Shown: piece by piece, positions 1,434-63,515 of the stretch
Layout of the letters: each line of letters starts with the position of its first letter
Numbering within the stretch: the first letter of the stretch is position 1
Source: Klebsiella phage KpCHEMY26
Length of the DNA stretch: 64,000 nucleotides
Sequence record: MN163281.1
Reading direction: 5' to 3' (one strand)
Translations under genes and position numbers: made by a program
The notes under the pieces: model-generated
Database searches by the model: none
Seen by the model: only the letters and a program-made list of their open reading frames with translations
What the model was told of the DNA's origin: nothing

Positions 1434-2718
1434 CTGAAGGCACCAGCAGAGATTGTTTAGCAACAAAGGTTTGAATATCACCCCATCTGTCTTTATAAGC
1501 ACAGATAGGTTCGCCTTCGAAGTATCCAACTAAAGTTACTTCAATGGAATCCCCTTCAACAAAGTACATGTACTTAGAAGAAGTTTGTTTAAGTTCAGAA
1601 AGAGATTCAGATACAAAAACAAGTTCTGATTGAGGTTCAGCTTTAGGTACAGCTTCACCTTTAAAGAACGTAATACCTGCTTCACTAAATACTTTAGATA
1701 CTTCTTCCAGTGGTTTGGTAGTACTGATAGTTACAGGAACTCCATCACGTACCTGTTCATATGTCTGCTTAGATTCATATAAACCTAAATTAGACATATT
1801 ACGTATAGCTTTGATACAGGCTACAGGCTGTTCTTTATCAACACCGACAATAGCAATCTGAATCTTTTCAGCTGCTTCAATTGGTTCAATCAGACGATAG
1901 TCGATGTTTTGTTTACGAGGAAAGTTTTCAGATTTAAAGAATCCTCTTTCATCACTCCTTTCACCAATAAAGGTAACTACATCACCAATGGTAATGTTGT
2001 GTTCATCCTTGATTTGCTGACCACGAACGATACCTTTGTCACCTTCTTTCCATTGGTCAGCTGGCTTAGTAGTCCAAGTAACTTTGCACTTTAATCCAGT
2101 ATCATTTGAAGATGATGATTGGTCTTCATCTGCTGAATAGCCATATACAAGGCATGAATCTGGACGATGATAAAAGGTTTCTCCTTTGACCTCTATGTAG
2201 AGGTCGCCATCTGCATCAATGAATTTAATGATGCCTTCAGTTCCAGCTTCGAATCCACTAACATTATTATGGAGAATACGAACTTTACGACCTTCTTTAG
2301 GTTCAAGATAATTGAGTTGACCTAAGTAGAAGTAACCAGATGTTGATTCATCATCCCTATCTTCAAATTCAAAAGAAGGACAGATAGAGCCGTCATCATG
2401 GGCTAGAGTAAGGATTGTACCTTCATCTGCATCTTCACTGTCATCATCACGATTCAGAATGAAGATATCACCTGGTTTAAAGCCGCGAGCTTGAGCAGGT
2501 GTCTTACCTTTGATAACAGGAGCTACGTTCTTTAACCAAAGATTCTGTAGTTCAGTGTCATCTTCATCATAGTCTTCTGTGTTTCTGAATGTTGGGCAAT
2601 GACTATTGTCATCTTCATGAAGCCATACTATTTCACTACTATCGAAGTCATCAGTGTCATCACAAACGATAAACTTCATGCCTTCGGTATAACCTAAATT
2701 TTCACATGGGGTAGTCAT
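1426..2718 (-). CDS. acidic hypothetical protein (430 aa); C-terminus carries copy 1 of the repeated domain
   Basis: Long ORF; ATG at 2718 preceded by AGGAGA RBS; the ORF-track N-terminal extension 2719-2847 runs through a terminator hairpin and is rejected. Confidence 0.6.
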   Translation of the reverse strand: MTTPCENLGYTEGMKFIVCDDTDDFDSSEIVWLHEDDNSHCPTFRNTEDYDEDDTELQNLWLKNVAPVIKGKTPAQARGFKPGDIFILNRDDDSEDADEGTILTLAHDDGSICPSFEFEDRDDESTSGYFYLGQLNYLEPKEGRKVRILHNNVSGFEAGTEGIIKFIDADGDLYIEVKGETFYHRPDSCLVYGYSADEDQSSSSNDTGLKCKVTWTTKPADQWKEGDKGIVRGQQIKDEHNITIGDVVTFIGERSDERGFFKSENFPRKQNIDYRLIEPIEAAEKIQIAIVGVDKEQPVACIKAIRNMSNLGLYESKQTYEQVRDGVPVTISTTKPLEEVSKVFSEAGITFFKGEAVPKAEPQSELVFVSESLSELKQTSSKYMYFVEGDSIEVTLVGYFEGEPICAYKDRWGDIQTFVAKQSLLVPSDD

Positions 2719-2804
2719 TGAATGTCTCCTACTAGCCTGAAGCGAAGCGCTCCGAGCGAACGTAGTGAGCGAAGGAAGCGCGTAAGCGTAAGGCGGGAAT
2801 TGGG

Positions 2805-2833
2805 AATAAAAAAGCCCCCGTGGGAGAGGGGGC
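2805..2833 (-). terminator. rho-independent terminator (minus strand)
   Basis: Minus-strand read: GCCCCC-TCTCCCAC-GGGGGC hairpin followed by TTTTTTATT. Confidence 0.7.
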
Positions 2834-3090
2834 AAAGGGTTTAGCAATACATGGTCGAGATGCAGCGAACATCTCTATAAATATACTAAGAAATATACTT
2901 ATAGAGTTATTCAGATTGGTTCCCCGTTTCTAATACACGGACGGGGACACTCCATGGTCGTTTGGTAATCAGGACGACTCACTCCTGACTAATGGTTATG
3001 CAATTAAGCAGCCATCAGAACAACATCATCGTTTGCATTTATGTTTTTGGTTCGTTTCTAAAAAACCGCATAATCGCATACGAAAACTAT

Positions 3091-3666
3091 CAAAGAGTGC
3101 ACTCACCCTGGTTTAGGAGTTGAACCTAATTGGGAAGTAGTTTACGAACATTTTTCACTTCTTTCGCGGTAACCACGATAAGTGTACTCATTGATAGGAT
3201 GTTGAGCTGGTTAGGCCAGCAACTCCCTGAGTTCGGTAACAGAGTTCTAGTACTCTGGTATCTCTAACTGTTAAGTCTTCGATACGTAACAGGCGCTGCC
3301 TGTATAGATACTCTATTGAAACTATGGCAGTTTCGGCGTTGTCTGGCGTAGGCCCCCACAACGGAAAGAGCACTCATTGCATCGACCAAACAGAATCGTC
3401 TTTTCGATTATGACTCTACTTTGACGGTTGCTCTGCTGCGCTAACCCAATGCTCTTACCTGTTGTGTGTTGTGACTACTAACCTCGGAACTCATTACCGC
3501 TCTTTGGCTTGACCTTTTTACAGGTTAGTGAGTGTTTTTCATCCGCCTGCACTCATTTTATTTGTTTTCATCACAACGAAAAGAGCACTGCCGCATTCCT
3601 CGTCTGGTAGGGTGCGGAGCTTTGTTAATCCAGTCAGTGCTCTTATCTGTTGTGTGCTGGTTTGAG
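3091..3666. repeat. noncoding region with recurring inverted 10-bp boxes (AAAGAGCACT / its complement AGTGCTCTT within TGCTCTTAYCTGTTGTGTG)
   Basis: Box AAAGAGCACT at about 3366 and 3580 (variant AAAGAGTGCACT about 3093); box GCTCTTA(C/T)CTGTTGTGTG at about 3451 and 3639; each pair is an inverted repeat 60-85 bp apart. Confidence 0.6.
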
Positions 3667-3721
3667 CAGAGCCAGCTTGCTATCCCAATCGCCGTAGTAG
3701 GAGTACGACAATCTGAGTTTA

Positions 3722-4330
3722 TTACTTACCGGTGTTGAGGACAACACCCTGACGCTTAGAATCAGCTTCAGCGATAGCCAGACGAGTTTCACGTTCAGCT
3801 TTAATCTGACCACGAGCTTCTTCCAGCTGTTCCATCAGAAGAGCAATGCGGTCGTCTTTCGCATTTGATTTGGCGGTCAGTTCGGCAGTCTGAATGCGAT
3901 GTGCTGCTTCAGCATCTTTCAGTTTCTGTTGGAATTCAGCAGCGCCTTTACGGAAGCCATTAGCTTCAGCTTCGGCAACAGCTTGGCTGTTATCAGCCAG
4001 AGCAGTTTCCAGATTACTTTCCAGTTCGTTAAGAACGGAAACTTTAACGTGGGCTAAGCCACGGCTTTGAAGCAGGTCGATGAGAACACCGTCTTCATCT
4101 TCCAATACGCGCAGACGCAGTTGAGCAGCGCTTTCACGGAATTTGTTGTCGAATTCGACATTCAGGTTGTCCAGTTGGGACTGTTTGAATTCGATATCGT
4201 CAGCCAGTTTGACAGTGCTTTCAGAAAGAGCAGACAGGTCAGAAGCGATTTTAGCCAGACCAGTAGTTGCTACAACCAGTGCTTTAGTTGAACGGTCAGC
4301 GACGGTAATGACTTTTTTAGTTTCAGACAT
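3722..4330 (-). CDS. coiled-coil Ala/Glu/Leu-rich protein (202 aa); host-like GC content
   Basis: ORF with about 50 percent GC against about 38-42 percent in surrounding phage genes; heptad-like composition; no recognised motif. Confidence 0.55.
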   Translation of the reverse strand: MSETKKVITVADRSTKALVVATTGLAKIASDLSALSESTVKLADDIEFKQSQLDNLNVEFDNKFRESAAQLRLRVLEDEDGVLIDLLQSRGLAHVKVSVLNELESNLETALADNSQAVAEAEANGFRKGAAEFQQKLKDAEAAHRIQTAELTAKSNAKDDRIALLMEQLEEARGQIKAERETRLAIAEADSKRQGVVLNTGK

Positions 4331-4500: not shown

Positions 4501-4683
4501 TCAGAAGCCAGGGAAGAAGAAAGCCATCAGCTTGTTATAGCCGTTGTCGATAAGCTCTTGCTTATGTGGACGGTCCATACGTTTAGCTACTCTGGACTTT
4601 ACTTCTTTCCGGCGATTACGGGACATTGATGCACGAAACTCCTGACGGTTTGGAGCCATCGGATTAACTTTTAAATAGCGCAT
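4501..4683 (-). CDS. small basic protein (60 aa), host-like GC
   Basis: Arg/Lys-rich ORF co-oriented with 3722-4330; GC-rich; competing plus-strand ORF 4441-4629 rejected. Confidence 0.35.
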   Translation of the reverse strand: MRYLKVNPMAPNRQEFRASMSRNRRKEVKSRVAKRMDRPHKQELIDNGYNKLMAFFFPGF

Positions 4684-4704
4684 TGGGATTTCCTTTAAGT
4701 TGAA

Positions 4705-4790
4705 TGGTGCGGGTAACGAGACTCGAACTCGTATGCGATTAAGCGAGGGATTTTAAATCCCTTGTGTCTACCAATTTCACCATACCCGCA
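4705..4790 (-). tRNA. tRNA-Leu (anticodon UAA), type II with long variable arm, CCA encoded
   Basis: Manual fold: acceptor TGCGGGT/ACCCGCA, anticodon arm AGGGA-TTTAAAA-TCCCT, long variable arm, T-arm GTTCGAGTC. Confidence 0.8.
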
Positions 4791-4791
4791 T

Positions 4792-4867
4792 TGGTGCTCA
4801 CTCACGGAATCGAACCGCGTCCATCCTGCTTACAAGGCAGGCGTTCACCCATATGAACTTAGCGAGC
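4792..4867 (-). tRNA. tRNA-Thr (anticodon UGU)
   Basis: Manual fold: acceptor GCTCGCT/AGTGAGC, anticodon arm CCTGC-CTTGTAA-GCAGG, T-loop TTCGATT, CCA encoded. Confidence 0.8.
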
Positions 4868-4868
4868 T

Positions 4869-4954
4869 TGGCGGATAGTATAGGATTCGAACCTATGAAC
4901 CGTTTCCAGTCTACTGATTAGCACTCAGCTGCATTACCACTCTGCCAACTATCC
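4869..4954 (-). tRNA. tRNA-Ser (anticodon GCU), type II
   Basis: Acceptor GGATAGT/ACTATCC, anticodon loop GTGCTAA, long variable arm, T-arm GGTTCGAATCC, CCA encoded. Confidence 0.7.
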
Positions 4955-4955
4955 T

Positions 4956-5031
4956 TGGTACATCCTACTGGATTCGAACCAGTGACCAATAGCTTAGAAG
5001 GCTACTGCTCTATCCACTGAGCTAAGGATGC
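4956..5031 (-). tRNA. tRNA-Arg (anticodon UCU)
   Basis: Acceptor GCATCCT/AGGATGT, D-arm TAGCTCAGTGGATAGAGC, anticodon loop CTTCTAA, T-arm GGTTCGAATCC, CCA encoded. Confidence 0.8.
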
Positions 5032-5198
5032 ATAGTACCCTCGTTTCGTCCAATGGTAAGGGTCCCCATCTTCGTGCGCATTGGCTGGACTACCAGTTAT
5101 TCATTTAATGATGCTGGATATAGGTAAGAAGCTTCTAACCTCAAGGAACATCAATAAACATACCGACCGGCCACGGATTGCAGAGTTACCTGCAAATA

Positions 5199-5274
5199 TG
5201 GCGATGAGATAGGGATTTGAACCCTAATATCACAGATTAACAGTCTGCCGCTTTACCGAGTTAGCTATCTCATC
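5199..5274 (-). tRNA. tRNA-Asn (anticodon GUU)
   Basis: Acceptor GATGAGA/TCTCATC, anticodon arm GCAGA-CTGTTAA-TCTGT, T-arm TAGGGTTCAAATCCCTA, CCA encoded. Confidence 0.75.
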
Positions 5275-5278
5275 AAAT

Positions 5279-5363
5279 TGGCGGAAGATAAAGGAATCGA
5301 ACCCTCACCGTTTCCGGTGGCGACAGATTTCAAGTCTGCTTGCTCCCATGAGCACTATCTTCC
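5279..5363 (-). tRNA. tRNA-Ser (anticodon UGA), type II
   Basis: Acceptor GGAAGAT/ATCTTCC, anticodon loop CTTGAAA, long variable arm GCCACCGGAAACGGTGAG, T-arm GGTTCGATTCC, CCA encoded. Confidence 0.75.
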
Positions 5364-5368
5364 TAAAT

Positions 5369-5800
5369 TGGTCTCCATACGAGGATTTGAACCTCGGACT
5401 TCAACTACGCATGTACTTCTCTATGGCAATTAGCACAAAGAAGAACACATTTACTAGTTTCGTAAAGGTATTTATCCCAACTCCTATTCAATGCTGAAGC
5501 TGGGTCATGCTCTTTATCGCCATCTGCATGATGCCATTCTAATGCACCACCAAATTTGTTATACCCGCAAATACTACATCCTAATGAAACTTTATGAGTA
5601 TGAGCCATTTTAGTAAGTAAGCGACTGCGCTGTTTATTTCTATCAAACCTACTCAAGCCATCAGGTAAACAGGTGTAACAAAACCTACGATTAGAGCCGC
5701 CAGAACCTTTACTAATTACCGTAAACTCTGCTGCGCAGTAGTCACAAACTTTCATTATTGGTCCCAAACCAGATGCTCTGCCAAACTGAGCTATACGGAG
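5369..5800 (-). pseudogene. tRNA-Pro (UGG) gene split by an HNH endonuclease ORF: 5' half 5768-5800, 3' half 5369-5400
   Basis: 5' part CTCCGTA-TA-GCTCAGTTTGGCAGAGC-A-TCTGG-TTTGGGA is a perfect acceptor/D-arm/anticodon loop; 3' part has T-arm CGAGGTTCAAATCCTCG, acceptor TATGGAG pairing with CTCCGTA, and CCA; the 3' anticodon stem is replaced by the HNH ORF start. Confidence 0.6.
5405..5755 (-). CDS. HNH homing endonuclease (about 116 aa)
   Basis: Motifs EWHHADGDKEHD and CANCHREVHA, plus N-terminal CxxC...CxxC zinc-binding cysteines; lies between the two halves of a tRNA-Pro gene. Confidence 0.8.
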   Translation of the reverse strand: MKVCDYCAAEFTVISKGSGGSNRRFCYTCLPDGLSRFDRNKQRSRLLTKMAHTHKVSLGCSICGYNKFGGALEWHHADGDKEHDPASALNRSWDKYLYETSKCVLLCANCHREVHA

Positions 5801-52830: not shown

Positions 52831-54273
52831 TTAATCTACGATGCGTTCGTGCATTTCTGCTACCTGACCGGTAACTTTGCTGACCGCCGCTTCAATTGCC
52901 GGAGCAACTGCGTTAGCGATAACTTCGTTAAAGGTCGGCTCTTTCACTTTCGGCTTGCTCTGCTCTTCGAGCAGCTTACGCTGGGCCTGAATGGTCAGAG
53001 CGGAATCCAGCAGTGCTTTACCGCTGATTTGCTCGATAACAGTACCCGGCTCCTGATACTGGAGCTGGTGCAGCTTGGCACGTTTAACCACTTCAGCGAT
53101 AACCGCCGGAATGGTACCTGCCAGCGCTTCGCCAACCAGAGTCAGGTCTTCAGATGCGTCGATGGTGTCACGACCGTACAGGCGAACCAGTTTTTCAACT
53201 GCTTTCGCATCCGGCGGAGTCACATCGATGATGGCATCCAGACGGCCCGGACGCAGCATCGCTGGGTTGATGTTTTCGAGGTGGTTGGTAGTCAGAACGG
53301 TGATGATGCGAGAAGATTTAGTGTCGATACCATCCAGAATGTTCAGGATATCGTCCATCTTCACGCTACGTTCACCGGATACAGCACGGTCGATATCTTC
53401 ACAGAAGATAACGCACGCTTTGTCGCTGTACTGCTTAGCGAACTGAATCGCATCAGACAGCTCATCAGAGCGCGGCACGTAAACGTAGGTAACGCCAGTT
53501 TTAACCGCGATAGACGCAGCAACTGTCGCAGCCATAGTTTTACCAGTACCGTATGGCCCACCCAGCAGTACGCCGCGTTTAACCGGCATGTGGTTGGCGA
53601 TGCAGTCTTCAACGCGCTCAATCGGCGTGAACAGGTTGGTTTCAATCAGCTGGTTAACATCATCGGAATAAACCAGAGAATCGCGCGAGATACCTTGCAG
53701 ATTCATGAATTCCGGTTCCGGCATTTCCAGCAGGTCGCCATCGTTATCGCGGAAGCGAATCTTAATCGCCTGACCCATATAGATGGATTCAGTGCGCAGT
53801 TTGTCTTCCACGGTATCGAACAGCAGCTCGATGGTACGCTCATCGGCGCGCAGTACTTTGGCTACCAGCTCAAAGCTGATACGGCCATCTTTCTTGGCGA
53901 CAGAGGTCTGAACAAAGCCTTCAACCTGCGGCAGAGAGAAGCGGCCCCACGGCACTTTTTTGGTACGGCCATAGCCGACTTGTACGTCCAGCATCTGCGG
54001 AGGATTAGAGCCAAAGAAGCCCGGAGTCGCTTCAGCAGCAGCCCAGCCGTAACGTTCGGTCAGCGCGTTCATCAGCGCATGGGCACCATCCCACGGGAAT
54101 ACGTTGTAGGTACGGCGCACAACAACTTCTTCTTCGTCGTACTTCTGACGACGCTTCAGCAGGTCGATAGCATCACCCAGCTTCATCTGCTCGGGCAGAA
54201 TGATTTTTTCGCCGTGACGCACGACTTCTGCTACGTGAACTTCTTTTTCGTCTTGTTGAAGAGTTTTAGCCAT
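52831..54273 (-). CDS. classic-clade AAA+ ATPase (FtsH/Cdc48/ARC-type ATPase module with a unique 225-aa N-domain), host-like high GC
   Basis: Walker A GGPYGTGKT, Walker B VIFCEDID, second region of homology TTNHLENINPAMLRPGRLDAIIDV; about 52 percent GC against about 38-42 percent in flanking phage genes; a long antisense ORF appears only because of the high GC. Confidence 0.75.
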   Translation of the reverse strand: MAKTLQQDEKEVHVAEVVRHGEKIILPEQMKLGDAIDLLKRRQKYDEEEVVVRRTYNVFPWDGAHALMNALTERYGWAAAEATPGFFGSNPPQMLDVQVGYGRTKKVPWGRFSLPQVEGFVQTSVAKKDGRISFELVAKVLRADERTIELLFDTVEDKLRTESIYMGQAIKIRFRDNDGDLLEMPEPEFMNLQGISRDSLVYSDDVNQLIETNLFTPIERVEDCIANHMPVKRGVLLGGPYGTGKTMAATVAASIAVKTGVTYVYVPRSDELSDAIQFAKQYSDKACVIFCEDIDRAVSGERSVKMDDILNILDGIDTKSSRIITVLTTNHLENINPAMLRPGRLDAIIDVTPPDAKAVEKLVRLYGRDTIDASEDLTLVGEALAGTIPAVIAEVVKRAKLHQLQYQEPGTVIEQISGKALLDSALTIQAQRKLLEEQSKPKVKEPTFNEVIANAVAPAIEAAVSKVTGQVAEMHERIVD

Positions 54274-56068: not shown

Positions 56069-57166
56069 TTAACTGTTTACGTGAATCAGTTGTCCGAACT
56101 TAACTTCTGCTCTTGGGTTATCAAGGCAAACCCAAATAACATTAGGTACAGGTGCTTTCTCCATTTGACGACAGTCTAAATCAGAGAAGACAACTATCAG
56201 TTCGGGTTTCTCTTTAGCTGCGTGGTCATACACGCAACCTAATGAGGTACCTCCTCTACCAGTGAATTCACATTGACTGATATCATCTCCTTCCTCTAAC
56301 TCATACACATTATGAATCTTCGTATCGAAGGTGCAGACAGTAATCCTTTTTGGATTAAGCTGTTTTTTAATGGCATGAATTTCACTGATGTATACAGTGA
56401 ACTGTGCATCAGTAACTGAACCAGAGATATCAGTATAAAAAATGATATGCTCTAGTCCTTCAGAGTTTAATGAAGGAAGATAGATATCTGGAAGAAAACG
56501 TCTATTGACCTTCTTCCACGAATAATCATTTCGAGTCATCTCATTAACAAAGTTTCTGAGAATGTCATTCCACGGCAGTTTTGGATTTAGTAAATCCTCT
56601 AGATAGGCTCGTATGTCTCCGGGAATATCGCCGTATTGACCACGTTGAGACGCAGCAATACTGCTTCGGATAAGCATAGAGTCAATCTGAGTATTGACCT
56701 GTTCATCCGATAGACCTTGGTTTTTTTTAATATCTAAACCAAATCCACCAGAAGGTATTGGAGGGGGATTACTGAACAGCAAATCGTAGATTTGTGGAGC
56801 ACTCATACCATCGTACTTGTGGTCCATCAATCCAGACTCCATCGCATAGCCAGCGTCATCCAACATATTATTTATGTAGTAGTCGCAGGCATAGTTCCAG
56901 ATGGTTGGATTTCTTCCCGATAGTCTCGACATGTGTTTTAACACAACATGCCAGGTTTCATGGGCGAGAAGTGTCACCCTCATCGGCCTGGATAAATCCA
57001 TAAAGAACTTTGGATTTATTTCTATACTCAACCCATCAGTACAAGCTGTGGGTACATCATCATTCCAGTTCAACTGAAGTGAGCAGAACATAGAACAGAT
57101 GAAAGTATTCTTTCTTATCGAGAACAAATCTACTTTTGCTAAATCTAACGCTTTATCTTTATCCAT
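56069..57166 (-). CDS. vWA-domain protein with N-terminal HExxH putative metallopeptidase domain (DUF2201-like; N4 gp25 position)
   Basis: HETWH motif (LLAHETWHVVLKH) in the N-terminal half; MIDAS motif DISGS (IIFYTDISGSV) in the C-terminal vWA domain; partner MoxR ATPase encoded immediately upstream. Confidence 0.65.
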   Translation of the reverse strand: MDKDKALDLAKVDLFSIRKNTFICSMFCSLQLNWNDDVPTACTDGLSIEINPKFFMDLSRPMRVTLLAHETWHVVLKHMSRLSGRNPTIWNYACDYYINNMLDDAGYAMESGLMDHKYDGMSAPQIYDLLFSNPPPIPSGGFGLDIKKNQGLSDEQVNTQIDSMLIRSSIAASQRGQYGDIPGDIRAYLEDLLNPKLPWNDILRNFVNEMTRNDYSWKKVNRRFLPDIYLPSLNSEGLEHIIFYTDISGSVTDAQFTVYISEIHAIKKQLNPKRITVCTFDTKIHNVYELEEGDDISQCEFTGRGGTSLGCVYDHAAKEKPELIVVFSDLDCRQMEKAPVPNVIWVCLDNPRAEVKFGQLIHVNS

Positions 57167-57177
57167 GCAGGGTCTCC

Positions 57178-58194
57178 TTAGAGCATACCTGCACCAGACT
57201 CGTTAGCGTATTTCATCACCCAATCCTGAACTTCAGGAACTTGAACAATGGCAGGCCGTGCTTTAACAGCACTACTTAAAGTTACGATTTGGAATTCAAC
57301 CGGCAGTTTATTGATAAACTTCATCAACTGAGCACCGTTATTGGGGTCAATCTTAGAAGCAACATAACCAGCATATGCGTATTTAATGTCTGGTCTGTTC
57401 TCAATTTCAATGCCTTCTGGGTCTTTGAGAATTTCTTCGATAGTCTTAATCTTTCCATAGATTGAAGTATATTCGATGAACTCTCTCGCAGCCCCCGGAC
57501 CAATTATCCCAGAGATAATGCCAAAGTCATTATCAATGGTGAGTTCTAAGCCATGAGAAACACGGCTGGTAAAATCCCAAGTACGAGGACATGGGAATGG
57601 GTTTTTAAGGTCCTGTGGGTTGAATTTATGGAACAGGTCTTCCTTAAACATTAAGAAAGATAGGATGCGATGGTCGATGGCATTATCCAATGCCCAGATT
57701 TTCCAATCATCGAAGTTCGCTTCCAGTTCCAAATTGACGATACGTGACAGAGTTGCACTACTCATTGTAGTGGTGATAGCTCCATCAGTATCTTTGTTAC
57801 CTGCCGCTGCAATATATACGTCAGGATGAAGTTTGGTTTGACCAACCATCCCATCCAATAACTTATACGCAGCAGCTTGAACAGCTTTTGGCGCTGTATT
57901 CATCTCATCGAGGAACAGCAGCCAGCCGTTATAACCTTCAGGTATTTTATCCCCTAAGATGGGGATATCTTTTGGTGGGTGATAAACCGAACGCCCGTTT
58001 TCAATATTAGGAAATCCGAGCAAGTCAGTTGGGTCACACTGACCTAAGCGTAGGTCAATAACCAGCAACTTAAACTCTTTGGCTATCTGACGAATAATCG
58101 CAGATTTACCAATGCCCGGACTACCTTTGATAAACGGGACCAATTTAGCGCCGAAAGCACGCTCTATGGCACGCTTAATAGCTATTGGTCTCAT
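57178..58194 (-). CDS. MoxR-like AAA+ ATPase (N4 gp24 position)
   Basis: Walker A GSPGIGKS, Walker B LLFLDEMN, 338 aa; operon partner of the vWA protein. Confidence 0.65.
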   Translation of the reverse strand: MRPIAIKRAIERAFGAKLVPFIKGSPGIGKSAIIRQIAKEFKLLVIDLRLGQCDPTDLLGFPNIENGRSVYHPPKDIPILGDKIPEGYNGWLLFLDEMNTAPKAVQAAAYKLLDGMVGQTKLHPDVYIAAAGNKDTDGAITTTMSSATLSRIVNLELEANFDDWKIWALDNAIDHRILSFLMFKEDLFHKFNPQDLKNPFPCPRTWDFTSRVSHGLELTIDNDFGIISGIIGPGAAREFIEYTSIYGKIKTIEEILKDPEGIEIENRPDIKYAYAGYVASKIDPNNGAQLMKFINKLPVEFQIVTLSSAVKARPAIVQVPEVQDWVMKYANESGAGML

Positions 58195-59386: not shown

Positions 59387-59560
59387 TTAGACAGGATAAG
59401 TTTTATCGAGACACTTGTTTAAGTTATGGCGATTGATGTACTCACGACGCTCTTCTTGTAGACGAGCTATTTCAGCTTCGTGCCCAACAATCGCTTTATC
59501 TATCTCAGCGATATTATGCTTATGTCTGTCCCAATCGAATTTGTTCATTGGCTCAGTCAT
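59387..59560 (-). CDS. micro-ORF (57 aa) translationally coupled to the dUTPase gene, absent from the ORF track
   Basis: ATG overlaps the dUTPase stop (TAATG); encodes [57 protein letters not shown]. Confidence 0.4.
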   Translation of the reverse strand: MTEPMNKFDWDRHKHNIAEIDKAIVGHEAEIARLQEERREYINRHNLNKCLDKTYPV

Positions 59561-60009
59561 TATTTAGTTCCTGTTGAATTAAAGCCGCCTTCACCACGTT
59601 CAGTAGCTTCAAAAGAATCTACTACAACGAATTCAGGACGCTCTACAGGGACGATTACCATTTGGGCAATACGGTCACCAGGGTTAACTGTGAAAGGCTC
59701 TGTAGAGCGATTCCACAAGCTCACCATAAGCTCTCCCTGATAGTCACTATCAATGAGGCCAGTGAGGTTACCTAACACGATACCGTGTTTGTGACCTAAG
59801 CCAGAACGAGGAAGAATCATTGCTGCTTTTGATACATCTTCCAGATGAATAGCAATACCAGTTTCAACCAGCTTGGTTTCACCCGGAGCAAGAGTAAATG
59901 GCATAGCTACGTTAGCTCTTAAATCTACACCAGCAGAGCCATCAGTAGCTGGAGCTGGGATACACATTGAAGGGTTTTTAAAAACGAGAGTTCTTAGCTT
60001 AACTTTCAT
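59560..60009 (-). CDS. dut: dUTPase (deoxyuridine triphosphatase), E. coli Dut-like
   Basis: Near-collinear with E. coli Dut: [62 protein letters not shown]; intermediate GC; a sigma70-like TATAAAT lies upstream. Confidence 0.9.
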
Positions 60010-60061
60010 AAGAGTTCCTGTTTAACTTTGTAGAAATGCCATAGCATCCTATAGCATTTAT

Positions 60062-60090
60062 AAAAAATTAAAATGCCCTCCGAAGAGGGC
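60062..60090 (-). terminator. rho-independent terminator after the SPFH gene (minus strand)
   Basis: Minus read: GCCCTC-TTCG-GAGGGC followed by ATTTTAATTTTTTA. Confidence 0.7.
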
Positions 60091-60096
60091 ATAGAA

Positions 60097-60957
60097 TTAC
60101 TTAAATGATACGAACGGGGTAACACTACCCTGCGTCATGTAAGTTGGCAGAGCACCGTTCCATTTCTCAATAGACCGAAGGTCTTTCATCTGAGGATAGC
60201 GGTTCAGGGCTTCACCTACTTTAGCGATAGCTTCTGCTTCAGCATTTGCCTTCATGATAACGGCATCAGCTTCTGCCTGTGCTTCTTTACGCTTAACGTC
60301 AGCCGCACCGTCAGCCTGAGCACGAGCCATGTTCGCTTCAGCTTCACGCTGCAATACTTCCTGAGTACGTTGCAGAGTGGTCTGGTTCGCAGTCACTTTC
60401 GCGTTGATAGAGGCGATAACGGTTTCCGGGTATTCCGGCTTCCCAACGTAGGACAGGCTGATGACGTCGATACCAATCGGAGCCATCTCTTCCTGCATTT
60501 CTTTCAGCGCAGCATCCAGAAGGTCAGCTTTACCGCCATCAATGAACTTGTCGGTAGTCATACGACTAGCCAGACGGTTCAGGCTATCAGCGATTTTCTG
60601 CTTCATGTCTGTATCGGTAATGTCATCGATACCCTTACGATATGTTTGGAAGACAGTAGTCACTTTGGTCGGATTGACCTTGTAAGCCATACCGATGTGA
60701 TAGCCGATGGTTGTACCATCCGACATTTGGAAGTTAAACGTATCGTCATACGTCTTCATCTGTTTGAAGGTCGGGAACGTATAGACGGTTGTGTTCCAAC
60801 CAGTCCAATAACGACCGACACCGACGACTTCGCCTACGCCTTTATCATCGCCCAGCTTGTTCACTTTAATACCGACGTGACCAGGTTCTACACGGTCACA
60901 GCCAGTTAAAGTTAATGCACCTAATACCAGTGCAACTGTCAAAAATACTTTTTTCAT
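60097..60957 (-). CDS. SPFH / band-7 (stomatin-prohibitin-HflK/C family) domain lipoprotein, host-like GC
   Basis: Signal peptide with lipobox LTLTG-C; core GHVGIKV... followed by Ala/Glu-rich coiled coil typical of SPFH proteins; about 50 percent GC; the antisense 179-aa ORF is a GC artefact. Confidence 0.65.
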   Translation of the reverse strand: MKKVFLTVALVLGALTLTGCDRVEPGHVGIKVNKLGDDKGVGEVVGVGRYWTGWNTTVYTFPTFKQMKTYDDTFNFQMSDGTTIGYHIGMAYKVNPTKVTTVFQTYRKGIDDITDTDMKQKIADSLNRLASRMTTDKFIDGGKADLLDAALKEMQEEMAPIGIDVISLSYVGKPEYPETVIASINAKVTANQTTLQRTQEVLQREAEANMARAQADGAADVKRKEAQAEADAVIMKANAEAEAIAKVGEALNRYPQMKDLRSIEKWNGALPTYMTQGSVTPFVSFK

Positions 60958-61139
60958 GGGAAATATTTCCTAATCAGAGGTTTAAAAATACGGTACAGAC
61001 ATACCGGATAAAGGACTGTAATAGCGATACCGCTTAACACTGACATGGTATCTTTTGCAGAAATCATGGCTGGTAGTACCCCAACATATAAAATAAGAGT
61101 AACGATTAGGGTGGCTACTAAATAGAAGGCAAGCTTCAT
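60954..61139 (-). CDS. small two-helix membrane protein (61 aa)
   Basis: Hydrophobic throughout; overlaps both neighbours by 4 nt in one operon with the SPFH gene. Confidence 0.45.
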   Translation of the reverse strand: MKLAFYLVATLIVTLILYVGVLPAMISAKDTMSVLSGIAITVLYPVCLYRIFKPLIRKYFP

Positions 61140-61459
61140 TTATCGGTTCCTTTTGGATTGATAGCCGAATTTGGAAGACAGCTGATACTGTAGCTATCAC
61201 TGGTATAACTAATAATTTTTCGAGTTCCGGGTACATAAAGTACCCAGCAAGTTACTTCAGCATCATCATCATGAATCCGTTGAATATCGACTTTCTCGAA
61301 CGTTGGATTGATACCAGAATCGCTGCCGTAGGCAGCCGATAAGAAACCAACCATAATTGCAGATAGAATTACGGTAAGCAGTGCTACATCGAGCACTACT
61401 CGTCTATAACTACGCATATGTAATCCTCTGGATGCAGAAGGACAGAGATATATCTCCAT
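61136..61459 (-). CDS. membrane-anchored small protein with beta-rich C-terminal domain (107 aa), possible NfeD-like partner of the SPFH protein
   Basis: Single TM helix (VVLDVALLTVILSAIMVGFL) then a soluble domain; SPFH genes are commonly paired with short NfeD-type membrane proteins. Confidence 0.4.
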   Translation of the reverse strand: MEIYLCPSASRGLHMRSYRRVVLDVALLTVILSAIMVGFLSAAYGSDSGINPTFEKVDIQRIHDDDAEVTCWVLYVPGTRKIISYTSDSYSISCLPNSAINPKGTDK

Positions 61460-61539
61460 CCATCCCAGACATAAATCTTGATAGATTCATCAATGAAGAC
61501 GTTATGAATGGGGTAGATATTTCCATCCCAGGCATACAT
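61396..61539 (-). CDS. hypothetical small protein (47 aa; the C-terminal part of ORF 61396-61740 is judged real)
   Basis: The N-terminal part of the long ORF overlaps 61541-61888 in another frame; ATG at 61539 follows that gene's stop. Confidence 0.3.
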   Translation of the reverse strand: MYAWDGNIYPIHNVFIDESIKIYVWDGWRYISVLLHPEDYICVVIDE

Positions 61540-61540
61540 C

Positions 61541-61888
61541 TTAGTGAAGGGTTTTAGGTTCTTCGCCCGAATAGGCTTCAACCTCACCTTGGTATTCGGC
61601 TGTGGTTGGGATTGTTGGGTCTGAGCATTCATACCAGTATCCATCTTCAGCTTTCCAGAAGAGCCATTTACCTCTAAGGTCTCTGGCAATAAGGTCGTGG
61701 TTAGGGGCATCACCCGGAATTGGGCTACGGAATGTAACATCAGCGATATCGACTAACTCATCGACACCTGATTGTTCATGCTGTACCCAAACCTTGTCGT
61801 AATAGAATGCTTTGATAATTACGTTAGACCCATGACCTTCAGGGTCTTTGATAAATTGCATTCTCATCATTAAACCGATAGTAATCAT
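61541..61888 (-). CDS. hypothetical protein (115 aa)
   Basis: ORF with Trp/Tyr-rich composition. Confidence 0.4.
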   Translation of the reverse strand: MITIGLMMRMQFIKDPEGHGSNVIIKAFYYDKVWVQHEQSGVDELVDIADVTFRSPIPGDAPNHDLIARDLRGKWLFWKAEDGYWYECSDPTIPTTAEYQGEVEAYSGEEPKTLH

Positions 61889-62268
61889 TAATCCATTCTC
61901 CCAATTAATCTCGCTTCGCCATTGACCGTATACACGGTCATGGCTCGCTCGTATTGCCAGAACTTGATATCAAGCCCTTTAGTGTTATTCAGATAATAAA
62001 CAGCAATTGGATATTGCGGTTCATCCCCCGGATAGGTTAGTAAACCATTATTGAATTTGGATTCAGTTTCTGAAGGGAGCATAGGCTCCCCGTATGAGTA
62101 GATTTCCCAAATCCTGTGACCTACATCATCTTCATTTTCAGAAGACAAGACAGCACGATTAACAATCTCTGGTATGTACCCGAGAGAGTCACGTATACGG
62201 TCACGGTTAATACCTACGTAATGACCTGTTGGGTCAATATCGATAGTTACAGCCGTGAAAATAGACAT
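61888..62268 (-). CDS. hypothetical protein (126 aa) downstream of RNAP II (N4 gp17 position)
   Basis: ORF immediately after the RNAP II large subunit gene. Confidence 0.4.
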   Translation of the reverse strand: MSIFTAVTIDIDPTGHYVGINRDRIRDSLGYIPEIVNRAVLSSENEDDVGHRIWEIYSYGEPMLPSETESKFNNGLLTYPGDEPQYPIAVYYLNNTKGLDIKFWQYERAMTVYTVNGEARLIGRMD

Positions 62269-62276
62269 AGTTTCTC

Positions 62277-63515
62277 CTACGAAAGCATATAATTACTTTG
62301 ACGGATATATTTAGACAGGTTGTTAGACAGCTTAGCGACAGGGATACGCTTACCAGATATCTGAGATGCAATAGCAGACAGCATGTTGCTATCAGCAATC
62401 TGTGCAAAGATATCGATGTAGTTCTGACGTACATGGTTCATGTACAGAGGATGACACTTAAAGCAATCATGGATTGCAATCAGTGCAAATGGCTTATGAG
62501 CCAACATCTTCTCGATGATTTCAATGAGTTCTCTTCGAACCCAATGAGGAATCATGTGAACATTGAGGTGGTCAATAAACTCAATCAGAACAGCAGATAC
62601 AAATTTATGGGATTCAGTTAATTTAAGAGCCTGTGCAAGCCTTGTATCATCTACTGAATAGTTGACGATACCTTTCGTATTAGAAGCCGTCAGAAGCTCA
62701 TACACACGCTGTACTTTGAGCAAATCGTAGTTAGCACGACGATTCATCTCACGAACAATCATCCCATCTACAGAGTGAATGACATTCGCTGCAAGTGACA
62801 GACCAGCTTTCTGACCTTGGTTAACCCAATAGCGGTGAGTGAACGAGCTATTCAGCTCATTAACTTCAAAGCTATCTTCCATTGGAACCATGACTTTAAC
62901 TACAGCATTGAATCCATCTGGAAGAGTCCAGTGATGTTGTAGAGCATTTGCCTGCCATAAGGCAATCAAGTCATCACGGAGCATGTTTGCACCTGGAGCA
63001 ATGATTTGAACCATCTCATAGAACTTCTGAAGCTCTATGGTGTTCTCACCAAACAGGTTTACAGGATTAGCTCTGGACCCATAGAAATGGGTCATAGTCG
63101 CATCCTTGGTATGAGAACGTTCAATCTTGTCCAGTTTGCCATCCAGTAAGTCACCCATGACTTTATAGCCATCGGTGTATGCATCATGACGTACATCAGG
63201 ATTAACCATGTTCACAGTCTCTGCTGTGACTTTACAGCCTGTCAGTGCTGCCATGCACTGTAGACCAGATGCAGTAGCATCCATACCTACCAGATATCCT
63301 GTAGGCAGTCCTGCCTTGGTATCTTCATAGCACAACTTACCTGCGTAGAATTGTGCAGGTTCATCTGCATCATCCACCAAACCAGATAAGTTATCTTTAT
63401 TTGCTTCGAACCAGTTTAACCGGTCTTCAAACAACTCCTTGTCTAAACCAAAGGAGTTAGCAATATCTAATTTGATATACTGGAACGGAGTGAACGTCTG
63501 CATTTTGAGTCTCAC
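62277..63515 (-). CDS. phage RNA polymerase II large subunit (T7-like single-subunit RNAP catalytic half; N4 gp16-like)
   Basis: Motif A-like DATASGLQCMAAL (T7 DGSCSGIQHF), motif B-like KDATMTHFYGS (T7 RSVTKRSVMTLAYGS), motif C-like IHDCF (T7 HDSF); 412 aa. Confidence 0.7.
   Translation of the reverse strand: MRLKMQTFTPFQYIKLDIANSFGLDKELFEDRLNWFEANKDNLSGLVDDADEPAQFYAGKLCYEDTKAGLPTGYLVGMDATASGLQCMAALTGCKVTAETVNMVNPDVRHDAYTDGYKVMGDLLDGKLDKIERSHTKDATMTHFYGSRANPVNLFGENTIELQKFYEMVQIIAPGANMLRDDLIALWQANALQHHWTLPDGFNAVVKVMVPMEDSFEVNELNSSFTHRYWVNQGQKAGLSLAANVIHSVDGMIVREMNRRANYDLLKVQRVYELLTASNTKGIVNYSVDDTRLAQALKLTESHKFVSAVLIEFIDHLNVHMIPHWVRRELIEIIEKMLAHKPFALIAIHDCFKCHPLYMNHVRQNYIDIFAQIADSNMLSAIASQISGKRIPVAKLSNNLSKYIRQSNYMLS

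Follow-up and report, generated by a model that had tools for sequence, protein, structure and literature searches.

A predicted SPFH lipoprotein and its small membrane partner in the N4-like Klebsiella phage KpCHEMY26

The genome of Klebsiella phage KpCHEMY26 (sequence record MN163281.1) carries a gene for an SPFH-domain lipoprotein, which raises the question of which neighboring genes belong with it, where it came from and what it might do in an infected cell. We analyzed a 64,000-nucleotide stretch of this genome, referred to here as the window, which belongs to an N4-like Klebsiella podophage with ~95% DNA identity to phage Pylas. A sequence-only reading of positions 60062 to 61459 had described three overlapping minus-strand genes, and this arrangement holds: the open reading frames (ORFs) lie at 61459..61136 (107 amino acids, aa), 61139..60954 (61 aa) and 60957..60097 (286 aa), and both junctions are 4-nt ATGA overlaps. 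We find that the locus contains a real SPFH lipoprotein gene and a tiny membrane partner, but the family is already annotated and is no rarity. As judged from sequence profiles and gene order, the conserved unit is not the three-gene module previously proposed but the last two genes, a phrog_1130 partner and a translationally coupled phrog_200 SPFH lipoprotein. Two-gene cassettes of this N4 gp19-gp20 type are widespread in phages, and the pair described here is the copy of the Pylas lineage.

The 286-aa protein (60097..60957, minus strand) is the orthologue of N4 gp20 and Pylas gp29, with amino acid identities of 56% and 99.7%, respectively. Its proposed SPFH identity was borne out by Pfam, where it matches Band_7 (PF01145) over aa 22-213 (60319..60894; E = 2.8e-29, 102.8 bits against a cut-off of 23.6 bits), and it aligns over its full length (aa 1-283) to phrog_200, 'lipoprotein' (E = 4e-99). 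A profile built from 14 diverse phage homologues found prohibitin as its best match in the PDB (E = 2e-20), with further matches to PHB2 (1.5e-16), PHB1, HflC (2e-13), HflK (1.5e-9), erlin and QmcA. The AlphaFold2 (AF2) monomer model, with a predicted local distance difference test score (pLDDT) of 75, shows the SPFH alpha/beta domain and a 76-residue helix (aa 178-253; 60199..60426) rich in Ala, Glu and Lys, the counterpart of the wall helix of SPFH cages; the C-terminal 21 residues are of low confidence. Foldseek aligned this model over its full length to HflC (top match, 1.7e-13), PHB2, PHB1, HflK and erlin, and gave a probability of 1.00 for HflC, PHB1/2, HflK, erlin, stomatin and flotillin. 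The equivalog models for HflC (TIGR01932, 29.8 bits against 134.4) and HflK (TIGR01933, 27.6 against 159.4) were both missed by a wide margin, and the protein is therefore classed as a prohibitin-type SPFH protein and not as an HflK/C orthologue. The gene is single at the locus, with no K/C-type pair, and encodes a lipobox instead of a transmembrane anchor. Several database records label homologues 'serine protease', a label we reject since a protease domain was absent from all domain scans of the SPFH protein; it is presumably a legacy of the old name 'membrane protease subunit' for HflK/C-type proteins.

The lipoprotein signal reported earlier is present. The N-terminus (60898..60957) reads MKK-VFLTVALVLGALT-LTG-C20, which fits a basic n-region, a hydrophobic h-region and a lipobox of the form [LVI][ASTVI][GAS]C, and the pattern match MKKVFLTVALVLGALTLTG-C20-DRV places the lipobox L-T-G-C20 with its Cys codon TGT at 60900..60898 and Asp21 at the +2 position. 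The lipobox Cys is kept in 13 of the 14 diverse phage homologues. Among 138 close relatives, 131 have a lipobox, followed at +2 by Asp in 108, Tyr in 18 and Glu in 5 (enterobacterial clade). In E. coli, Asp at +2 of a lipoprotein allows it to avoid the Lol system and be retained in the inner membrane. Because of this rule and of the prevalence of Asp at +2, the lipoprotein is probably retained in the inner membrane on its periplasmic face, which is the HflK/C side. In four Klebsiella prophage homologues (P0088, P0089, P0093 and P0094) the lipobox Cys is replaced by Trp, Tyr or Phe (..LVG[W/Y/F]DRV..). To judge from this substitution, lipidation would be impossible in these proteins, which may be decaying copies or an unlipidated variant.

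Beyond the signal peptide, five residues (G29, G48, W266, G268 and P271) are invariant among the 14 diverse homologues, which include copies from Gram-negative, crAss-like and Gram-positive phages. The last three lie in a conserved C-terminal segment, EKW266-N-G268-x-L-P271 ... PFVxxK (60100..60174), and the W[ND]GxxP motif recurs in 118 of 144 cluster representatives. By analogy with the HflK/C and prohibitin cages, this segment is a candidate inter-subunit cap.

The stop codon of the 61-aa gene (60954..61139, minus strand) overlaps the start of the SPFH gene. Its product has two hydrophobic helices, as the sequence-only reading had described, with a short polar loop between them and a basic tail at the C-terminus, and it is the predicted inner-membrane equivalent of N4 gp19 (phrog_1130, E = 2.8e-15). 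The suspected coupling of a short membrane protein to the SPFH gene proved genuine: by tblastn, 83 of the 86 loci examined have the partner as the gene immediately preceding SPFH. In 13 more distant phages we found a small one- or two-helix membrane ORF upstream of SPFH in 10, usually overlapping the SPFH start, with at least two predicted helices in N4 (gp19), P88, Pae_U2, Meara, Burkholderia PR1, crAss cr126_1 and phiCbK and one in Piffle, U47 and Staph A3R (MbpV). Ten aligned partners share helix 1, an L-P-x-M-(I/V)-S-x-x-(D/S) loop, helix 2 and the basic tail, and 7 of 10 diverse partners match phrog_1130. The Pylas annotation describes the protein as 'membrane protein, 2 TMDs', 'N in, C in'. 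Because the C-terminal tail is basic, the positive-inside rule predicts that the loop is periplasmic, on the same side as the lipoprotein. The partner had been expected to be of the NfeD type, which our searches do not support: the 61-aa protein matched no Pfam family, NfeD included, at E <= 0.1 (the partner family was re-scanned at E <= 1), had no meaningful sequence match in the PDB, and at its length leaves no room for an OB-fold. The partner ORF is conserved but unannotated in Stx-converting phages, phiP27 (3328-3492), a P1-like phage and Erwinia phage phiEaP8; unannotated copies lie at 2416-2600, 2820-3002 and 4675-4860 of the fetched stretches L005, L006 and L002, respectively.

A phage-borne SPFH lipoprotein had been regarded as unusual. 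Our tblastn search of 50,697 phage records found homologues in 520, of which 506 were near full length, and these data show that the gene is common. The carriers comprise N4-like, P2-like, lambdoid/Stx and P1-like phages, Vequintavirinae, Taipei-like myoviruses, Erwinia Ounavirinae, Pseudomonas Bruynoghevirus, Burkholderia and Stenotrophomonas phages, crAss-like phages, Staphylococcus Kayvirus (where the protein is MbpS) and phiCbK. The closest relatives other than Pylas are 275-aa 'SPFH domain-containing proteins' of Enterobacteriaceae, and all of the cases we inspected lie in prophages, for instance the P2-like prophage of UTI89, where the gene sits between cox and the replication gene; further temperate cases inspected were P88 and an Stx2d phage. 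The homologues of P1-like, Stx-converting (lambdoid) and P2-like phages share 72-75% identity, and the host receptors differ among those phages. At the DNA level, the cassette is present in 536 of 5426 complete E. coli genomes (~10%), on chromosomes and plasmids, and among the matches listed the cassette-bearing plasmids are ~95-98 kb, like the P1-like phage record. An exhaustive search grouped the homologues, at 50% identity, into 182 clusters at E <= 1e-30 and 760 at E <= 1e-10, and a second search, started from a diverse alignment, mainly recovered the close relatives again and contributed little further diversity. The literature has mentioned SPFH genes of phages since 2006 (PMC1524935).

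The finding itself is ordinary: Pylas has an annotated gene of 99.7% identity, and the family is among the 200 lowest-numbered PHROGs. That the family matters to phages is suggested by its presence in more than 500 sequenced phages, extreme purifying selection, a conserved partner that often goes unannotated and a predicted topology on the HflK/C side of the membrane. A defined role would explain an accessory gene that is common in therapeutic phages (N4-like, Kayvirus and Bruynoghevirus) and that is misread in their genomes as a 'serine protease', a 'transposase' or a lysogeny marker. What is most useful here is the definition of a conserved two-gene unit and a testable topology model.

Five known systems come closest to the pair. 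N4 gp19-gp20 and Pylas gp28-gp29 have the same gene pair, order, overlap and general position downstream of RNAPII, and Pylas already labels its copy 'lipoprotein; SPFH-like, prohibitin family'; between the window and Pylas, the SPFH genes carry many synonymous changes (dS 0.31) and one changed residue, with no difference in kind. The prohibitins PHB1/PHB2 (PDB 8rrh, 9urz) are the best profile match and share the full-length SPFH domain, the wall helix and the C-terminal segment, as well as an assembly that faces away from the cytoplasm or matrix side of an energy-transducing membrane, an orientation that is predicted for the phage protein. In contrast to prohibitin, the phage has one gene and no PHB1/PHB2 heteropair, a predicted lipid anchor in place of the N-terminal transmembrane helix, and a dedicated two-helix partner. 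E. coli HflK/HflC-FtsH (PDB 7vhp, 7wi3, 9cz2) resembles the phage protein in SPFH fold and predicted periplasmic orientation, and HflC is its top Foldseek match; however, the phage protein fails both equivalogs, has neither a K/C pair nor a transmembrane anchor, and any binding of FtsH is putative. QmcA-YbbJ (an SPFH-NfeD pair, PDB 8z5g) offers another parallel, in which an SPFH gene is operon-coupled to a small membrane protein possibly located inside the cage, and QmcA was matched by both profile and fold. The phage partner, however, does not match NfeD and, at 61 aa, could not accommodate an OB-fold, and QmcA faces the cytoplasm whereas the phage protein is predicted to be periplasmic. Finally, the SPFH member of Kayvirus MbpV-MbpS is a distant homologue (26% identity), and the gene for a small membrane protein lies upstream of it, the stop of one overlapping the start of the other, but that system is transmembrane-anchored, belongs to phages of a Gram-positive host, has a one-helix partner and lies inside the lysis region.

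The overall explanation we favor, with about even confidence, is a phage two-gene cassette whose SPFH product forms a prohibitin/HflKC-like ring that rests on the two-helix partner at the periplasmic side of the inner membrane. The SPFH protein would be exported and lipidated at Cys20, where the lipidation pattern is present. From its fold, we expect that the 76-residue helix and the W-x-G-x-x-P segment would, on balance, mediate oligomerization into a ring or cage. The two-helix partner may well be a membrane-embedded subunit of this cage, docked by its periplasmic loop, as synteny and coupling suggest, and its part could be like that of NfeD/YbbJ for QmcA, in role and not in ancestry. During early or middle infection, the cage would then fence off a patch of inner membrane together with its proteins. 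FtsH, which is the client of HflK/C, is the leading but doubtful candidate for the client of the phage cage. It is a doubtful but broader possibility that the pair is a phage-built prohibitin-like cage at the periplasmic side of the inner membrane that takes hold of one specific and universally conserved membrane machine of the host, for instance FtsH, Sec/YidC or a respiratory complex. If so, envelope proteostasis would be reprogrammed or the cell shielded from membrane-targeting abortive-infection effectors, and the pair would represent an unrecognized general takeover or counter-defence module, with an overlooked small partner, that spans virulent and temperate phages of Proteobacteria, Bacteroidota and Firmicutes.

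Several observations weigh against the ring at the inner membrane. Outside the enteric clade, the +2 residue varies (Thr, Ser or Gly), and in 3 of the 13 distant phages (Vequintavirinae EC152, an Erwinia Ounavirinae phage and GAP32) a membrane ORF was not found directly upstream of the SPFH gene. The SPFH gene is single and its product fails the HflK and HflC equivalogs. A HflK/C-like protein of a P. multocida prophage has been reported in outer-membrane vesicles (PMC9872710), and targeting to the outer membrane or to vesicles is possible for this reason, with the kinship of that protein to the phage SPFH family being assumed only. Authors who have discussed phage SPFH proteins have called their role unclear (PMC8540360, PMC13239085), and we found no functional study of, or experiment on, any family member in the searchable full-text literature.

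A role in superinfection exclusion or envelope protection, in which an early periplasmic assembly blocks DNA entry or envelope damage by secondary phages, is one alternative, and we consider it unlikely. Early lipoproteins and membrane proteins are known to act in exclusion, such as T5 Llp and T4 Imm and Sp. The cassette lies in early or middle regions of virulent and temperate phages, its lipoprotein is predicted on the periplasmic side, the SPFH gene of the Vi01-like phage PhiSH19 adjoins a gene annotated 'superinfection exclusion protein', and N4 gp18, just upstream of the N4 pair, is annotated 'similar to P22 gp17'. However, unlike receptor-specific exclusion lipoproteins, the protein stays 72-75% identical between phages whose receptors and routes of entry are unrelated, and because these phages use different receptors, the similarity of their proteins argues for a generic envelope component as the target and not for receptor-specific blocking. 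Further, the P2-like and lambdoid prophage operons that hold the gene would be expected to be repressed in the lysogen, neither the SPFH nor the 61-aa protein matched any PADLOC-DB 2.0 defence model (the 107-aa ORF had a chance-level match only, E = 0.05), and the literature yielded no experimental report of exclusion. Lysis timing, with a holin-like 61-aa protein that the SPFH lipoprotein corrals or times, or with an SPFH assembly that organizes the secretion of lytic enzymes, seems to us quite improbable. The size of the partner, its N-in/C-in topology and its basic tail do resemble class II holins, the Kayvirus mbpV-mbpS genes lie between the endolysin gene lysK and tgl, with MbpV noted as holin-like, and the crAss cr126_1 pair is two genes away from a peptidoglycan hydrolase. 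Yet the pair maps to the early or middle region, far from the lysis genes, in the window as well as in N4-, P2-, lambdoid and P1-like phages, the conserved periplasmic loop motif is no known feature of holins, and only one of ten partners had a holin match in Pfam, a marginal one (E = 0.038).

The phage protein could also be an HflK/C mimic aimed at FtsH, whose cage encloses or displaces FtsH hexamers from the periplasmic side and so alters the turnover of membrane or regulatory substrates. The predicted topology, with the SPFH domain in the periplasm, is that of HflK/C, both HflC and HflK rank high among the matches by structure and by profile, and both prohibitins and HflK/C associate with FtsH-type proteases (PMC12048511, which describes a contact of HflK with FtsH through Arg191). 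We nevertheless regard direct mimicry as doubtful, given equivalog scores of 28-30 bits where the cut-offs are 134-159, an unpaired SPFH gene whose product has a predicted lipid anchor replacing the transmembrane helix, and a best profile match to prohibitin and not to HflK/C. The family is also common in strictly virulent phages, where the control of lysogeny by FtsH is irrelevant (PMC8540360), and the AAA gene that had been cited in favor of an FtsH-directed strategy is unrelated. The model put forward in the sequence-only reading, a three-gene NfeD-SPFH module of recent host origin acting with that nearby AAA ATPase, drew on the gene overlaps and on the raised GC content of the SPFH and AAA genes. 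We now find it extremely unlikely: the first gene of the trio occurs independently of SPFH, the searches gave no sign of NfeD, the AAA gene resembles Cdc48 and is kept in relatives without SPFH, and the SPFH protein clusters with phage copies and not with cellular HflK/C.

The composition of the SPFH gene had been described as host-like, at about 50% GC. The GC content is indeed raised, at 48.0% (0.49 at third codon positions, GC3) against 41.9% for the window, but the likeness to the host was not borne out. The value matches SPFH relatives from temperate enteric phages and Erwinia phages (0.48-0.52) and contrasts with N4 gp20, which has a GC3 of 0.35. Descent from higher-GC phage lineages of ~47-52% GC and codon selection could account for the composition equally well. 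The gene prefers the codons CTG, CGT and GGT, a bias that would be consistent with an abundant structural protein. Recent capture from a host chromosome was considered and rejected, since the nearest relatives are phage and prophage copies and not cellular HflK/C and the raised GC is otherwise explained. Neighbour-joining placed the window copy together with those of phage MY01, Erwinia phage Pastis and phiEaP8, beside the temperate-phage clade; a second clade holds N4 and further N4-like phages.

Compared with its Pylas orthologue, the SPFH gene shows 49 synonymous differences and 1 non-synonymous difference, corresponding to a synonymous divergence (dS) of 0.31 and a ratio of non-synonymous to synonymous divergence (dN/dS) of 0.005. 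The dS is 0.02 in the partner gene and 0.06 in orf115, so that it changes sharply across the cassette (window 60097-61139 against positions 4598-5640 of the Pylas stretch, L001). These values suggest very strong constraint and, because the dS of the SPFH gene is 0.31 and that of the overlapping partner gene only 0.02, a recombination boundary inside the cassette, near the junction of the SPFH and 61-aa genes.

At the DNA level, positions 59500-62300 of the window share 94.9% identity with Klebsiella phage Pylas (Schitoviridae, Humphriesvirinae) and 86.7% with phage MY01. The genes run from the RNAPII large subunit through orf126, orf115, the three ORFs and dUTPase to replication and AAA genes, as in the Pylas annotation. 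The module had been called terminator-bounded, which stands for its downstream side only. An intrinsic terminator, ATGCCCTC-TTCG-GAGGGCAT followed by TTTTAATTTTTT, lies at 60073..60092 (minus strand) upstream of dUTPase; its hairpin GCCCTC-TTCG-GAGGGC and T-run at 60092..60073 are strongly terminator-like. Between orf115 and the first gene we found no terminator, and no promoter or terminator was found in 61418-61540, where the fold z-score of -2 is unremarkable. The terminator had also been assigned to the SPFH gene as its own: it is real, but it is conserved, together with the sequence into dUTPase, in Pollock and FSL SP-058 despite their different upstream cargo. The interval between orf115 and dUTPase (window 60000-61540; 2465-4140 and 2342-2800 of the fetched stretches L098 and L099) is a cargo hot spot in Humphriesvirinae. 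In Pollock the slot holds a 93-aa gene and nothing else, in SP-058 the 93-aa gene with a SecF-like and an adhesin-like gene, and in Pylas and the window the 93-aa gene with the SPFH pair. Because the terminator is shared by all three lineages, it belongs to the backbone, and several alternative cargos occupy the slot, the SPFH pair among them. By this comparison of gene content, the cassette is an accessory element at a variable site flanked by RNAPII-associated genes and dUTPase.

The first gene of the trio had been given as 107 aa. An AGAGGA ribosome-binding site precedes its second Met (Met15, at 61417), 93 aa is the length annotated in Pylas and KpCHEMY26, and the 24 homologues found in databases range from 65 to 93 aa, most of them at 86-93. 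On these grounds, the gene most likely starts at 61417 and spans 61136..61417 (minus strand), within the ORF that extends to 61459, and encodes a small protein of 93 aa that is predicted to be secreted or signal-anchored. It is a Humphriesvirinae backbone gene, confined to this subfamily (17 phage records), and because it is present without SPFH in Pollock and FSL SP-058, it stands outside the SPFH module. In Pollock the 93-aa gene lies alone between two terminators and the SPFH gene is absent; in FSL SP-058, which likewise lacks the SPFH gene, it is followed by genes for a SecF-like membrane protein and an adhesin-like 'tail protein'. The protein has an N-terminal signal peptide or anchor and an invariant C57 and C80, features that suggest a small periplasmic protein with a disulfide bond, confined to Humphriesvirinae. 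Behind the variable signal peptide or anchor, the mature part is strikingly conserved across the family (FEKVDIQRVHDDDAxVTCW...SDSYSISCLPNS). An OB-fold had been suggested for this protein, and none of our searches gave anything usable: it had no Pfam match, NfeD included, at E <= 0.1 and no meaningful sequence match in the PDB, and its AF2 model was poor (pLDDT 64), with no Foldseek match at E < 1. We reject the protein as an NfeD/OB-fold member of the module, mainly on its distribution independent of SPFH.

The AAA gene to which a coordinated FtsH-type strategy had been attributed lies at 52831..54273 (minus strand) and encodes a 480-aa protein with one AAA domain and weak NTPase-type matches. 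It had no Pfam match to a protease domain (an FtsH-type protease requires M41), and its best PDB relatives are Cdc48, p97 and VAT (5e-25). The protein is 88-89% identical in Pollock and FSL SP-058, both of which are without SPFH, and 62-70% identical in Pseudomonas and Erwinia N4-like phages; N4 is not among its tblastn matches, though N4 has an SPFH gene. These observations speak against both the FtsH-type assignment and the proposed coordination. Cdc48/p97-like proteins of this kind are often mis-annotated as FtsH or metalloprotease. The codon bias of the 480-aa AAA gene is extreme and of enteric type in a phage of 42% GC, with CTG for 37 of 41 Leu, no use of AGA, AGG or GGA, and a GC3 of 0.57.

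A second AAA gene, for a MoxR-type ATPase (57178-58194, minus strand), is uninterrupted in the window, with the junction near 57866-57868, and its Pylas orthologue is split by an intron of ~850 bp with an HNH homing endonuclease (L001 1516-2365), so that two phages that are otherwise ~95% identical differ here. This gene adjoins a gene for a DUF2201 metallopeptidase/VWA protein (56069-57166, minus strand), and by position and annotation the two are the counterpart of N4 gp24-gp25, a pair annotated 'similar to S. coelicolor proteins'.

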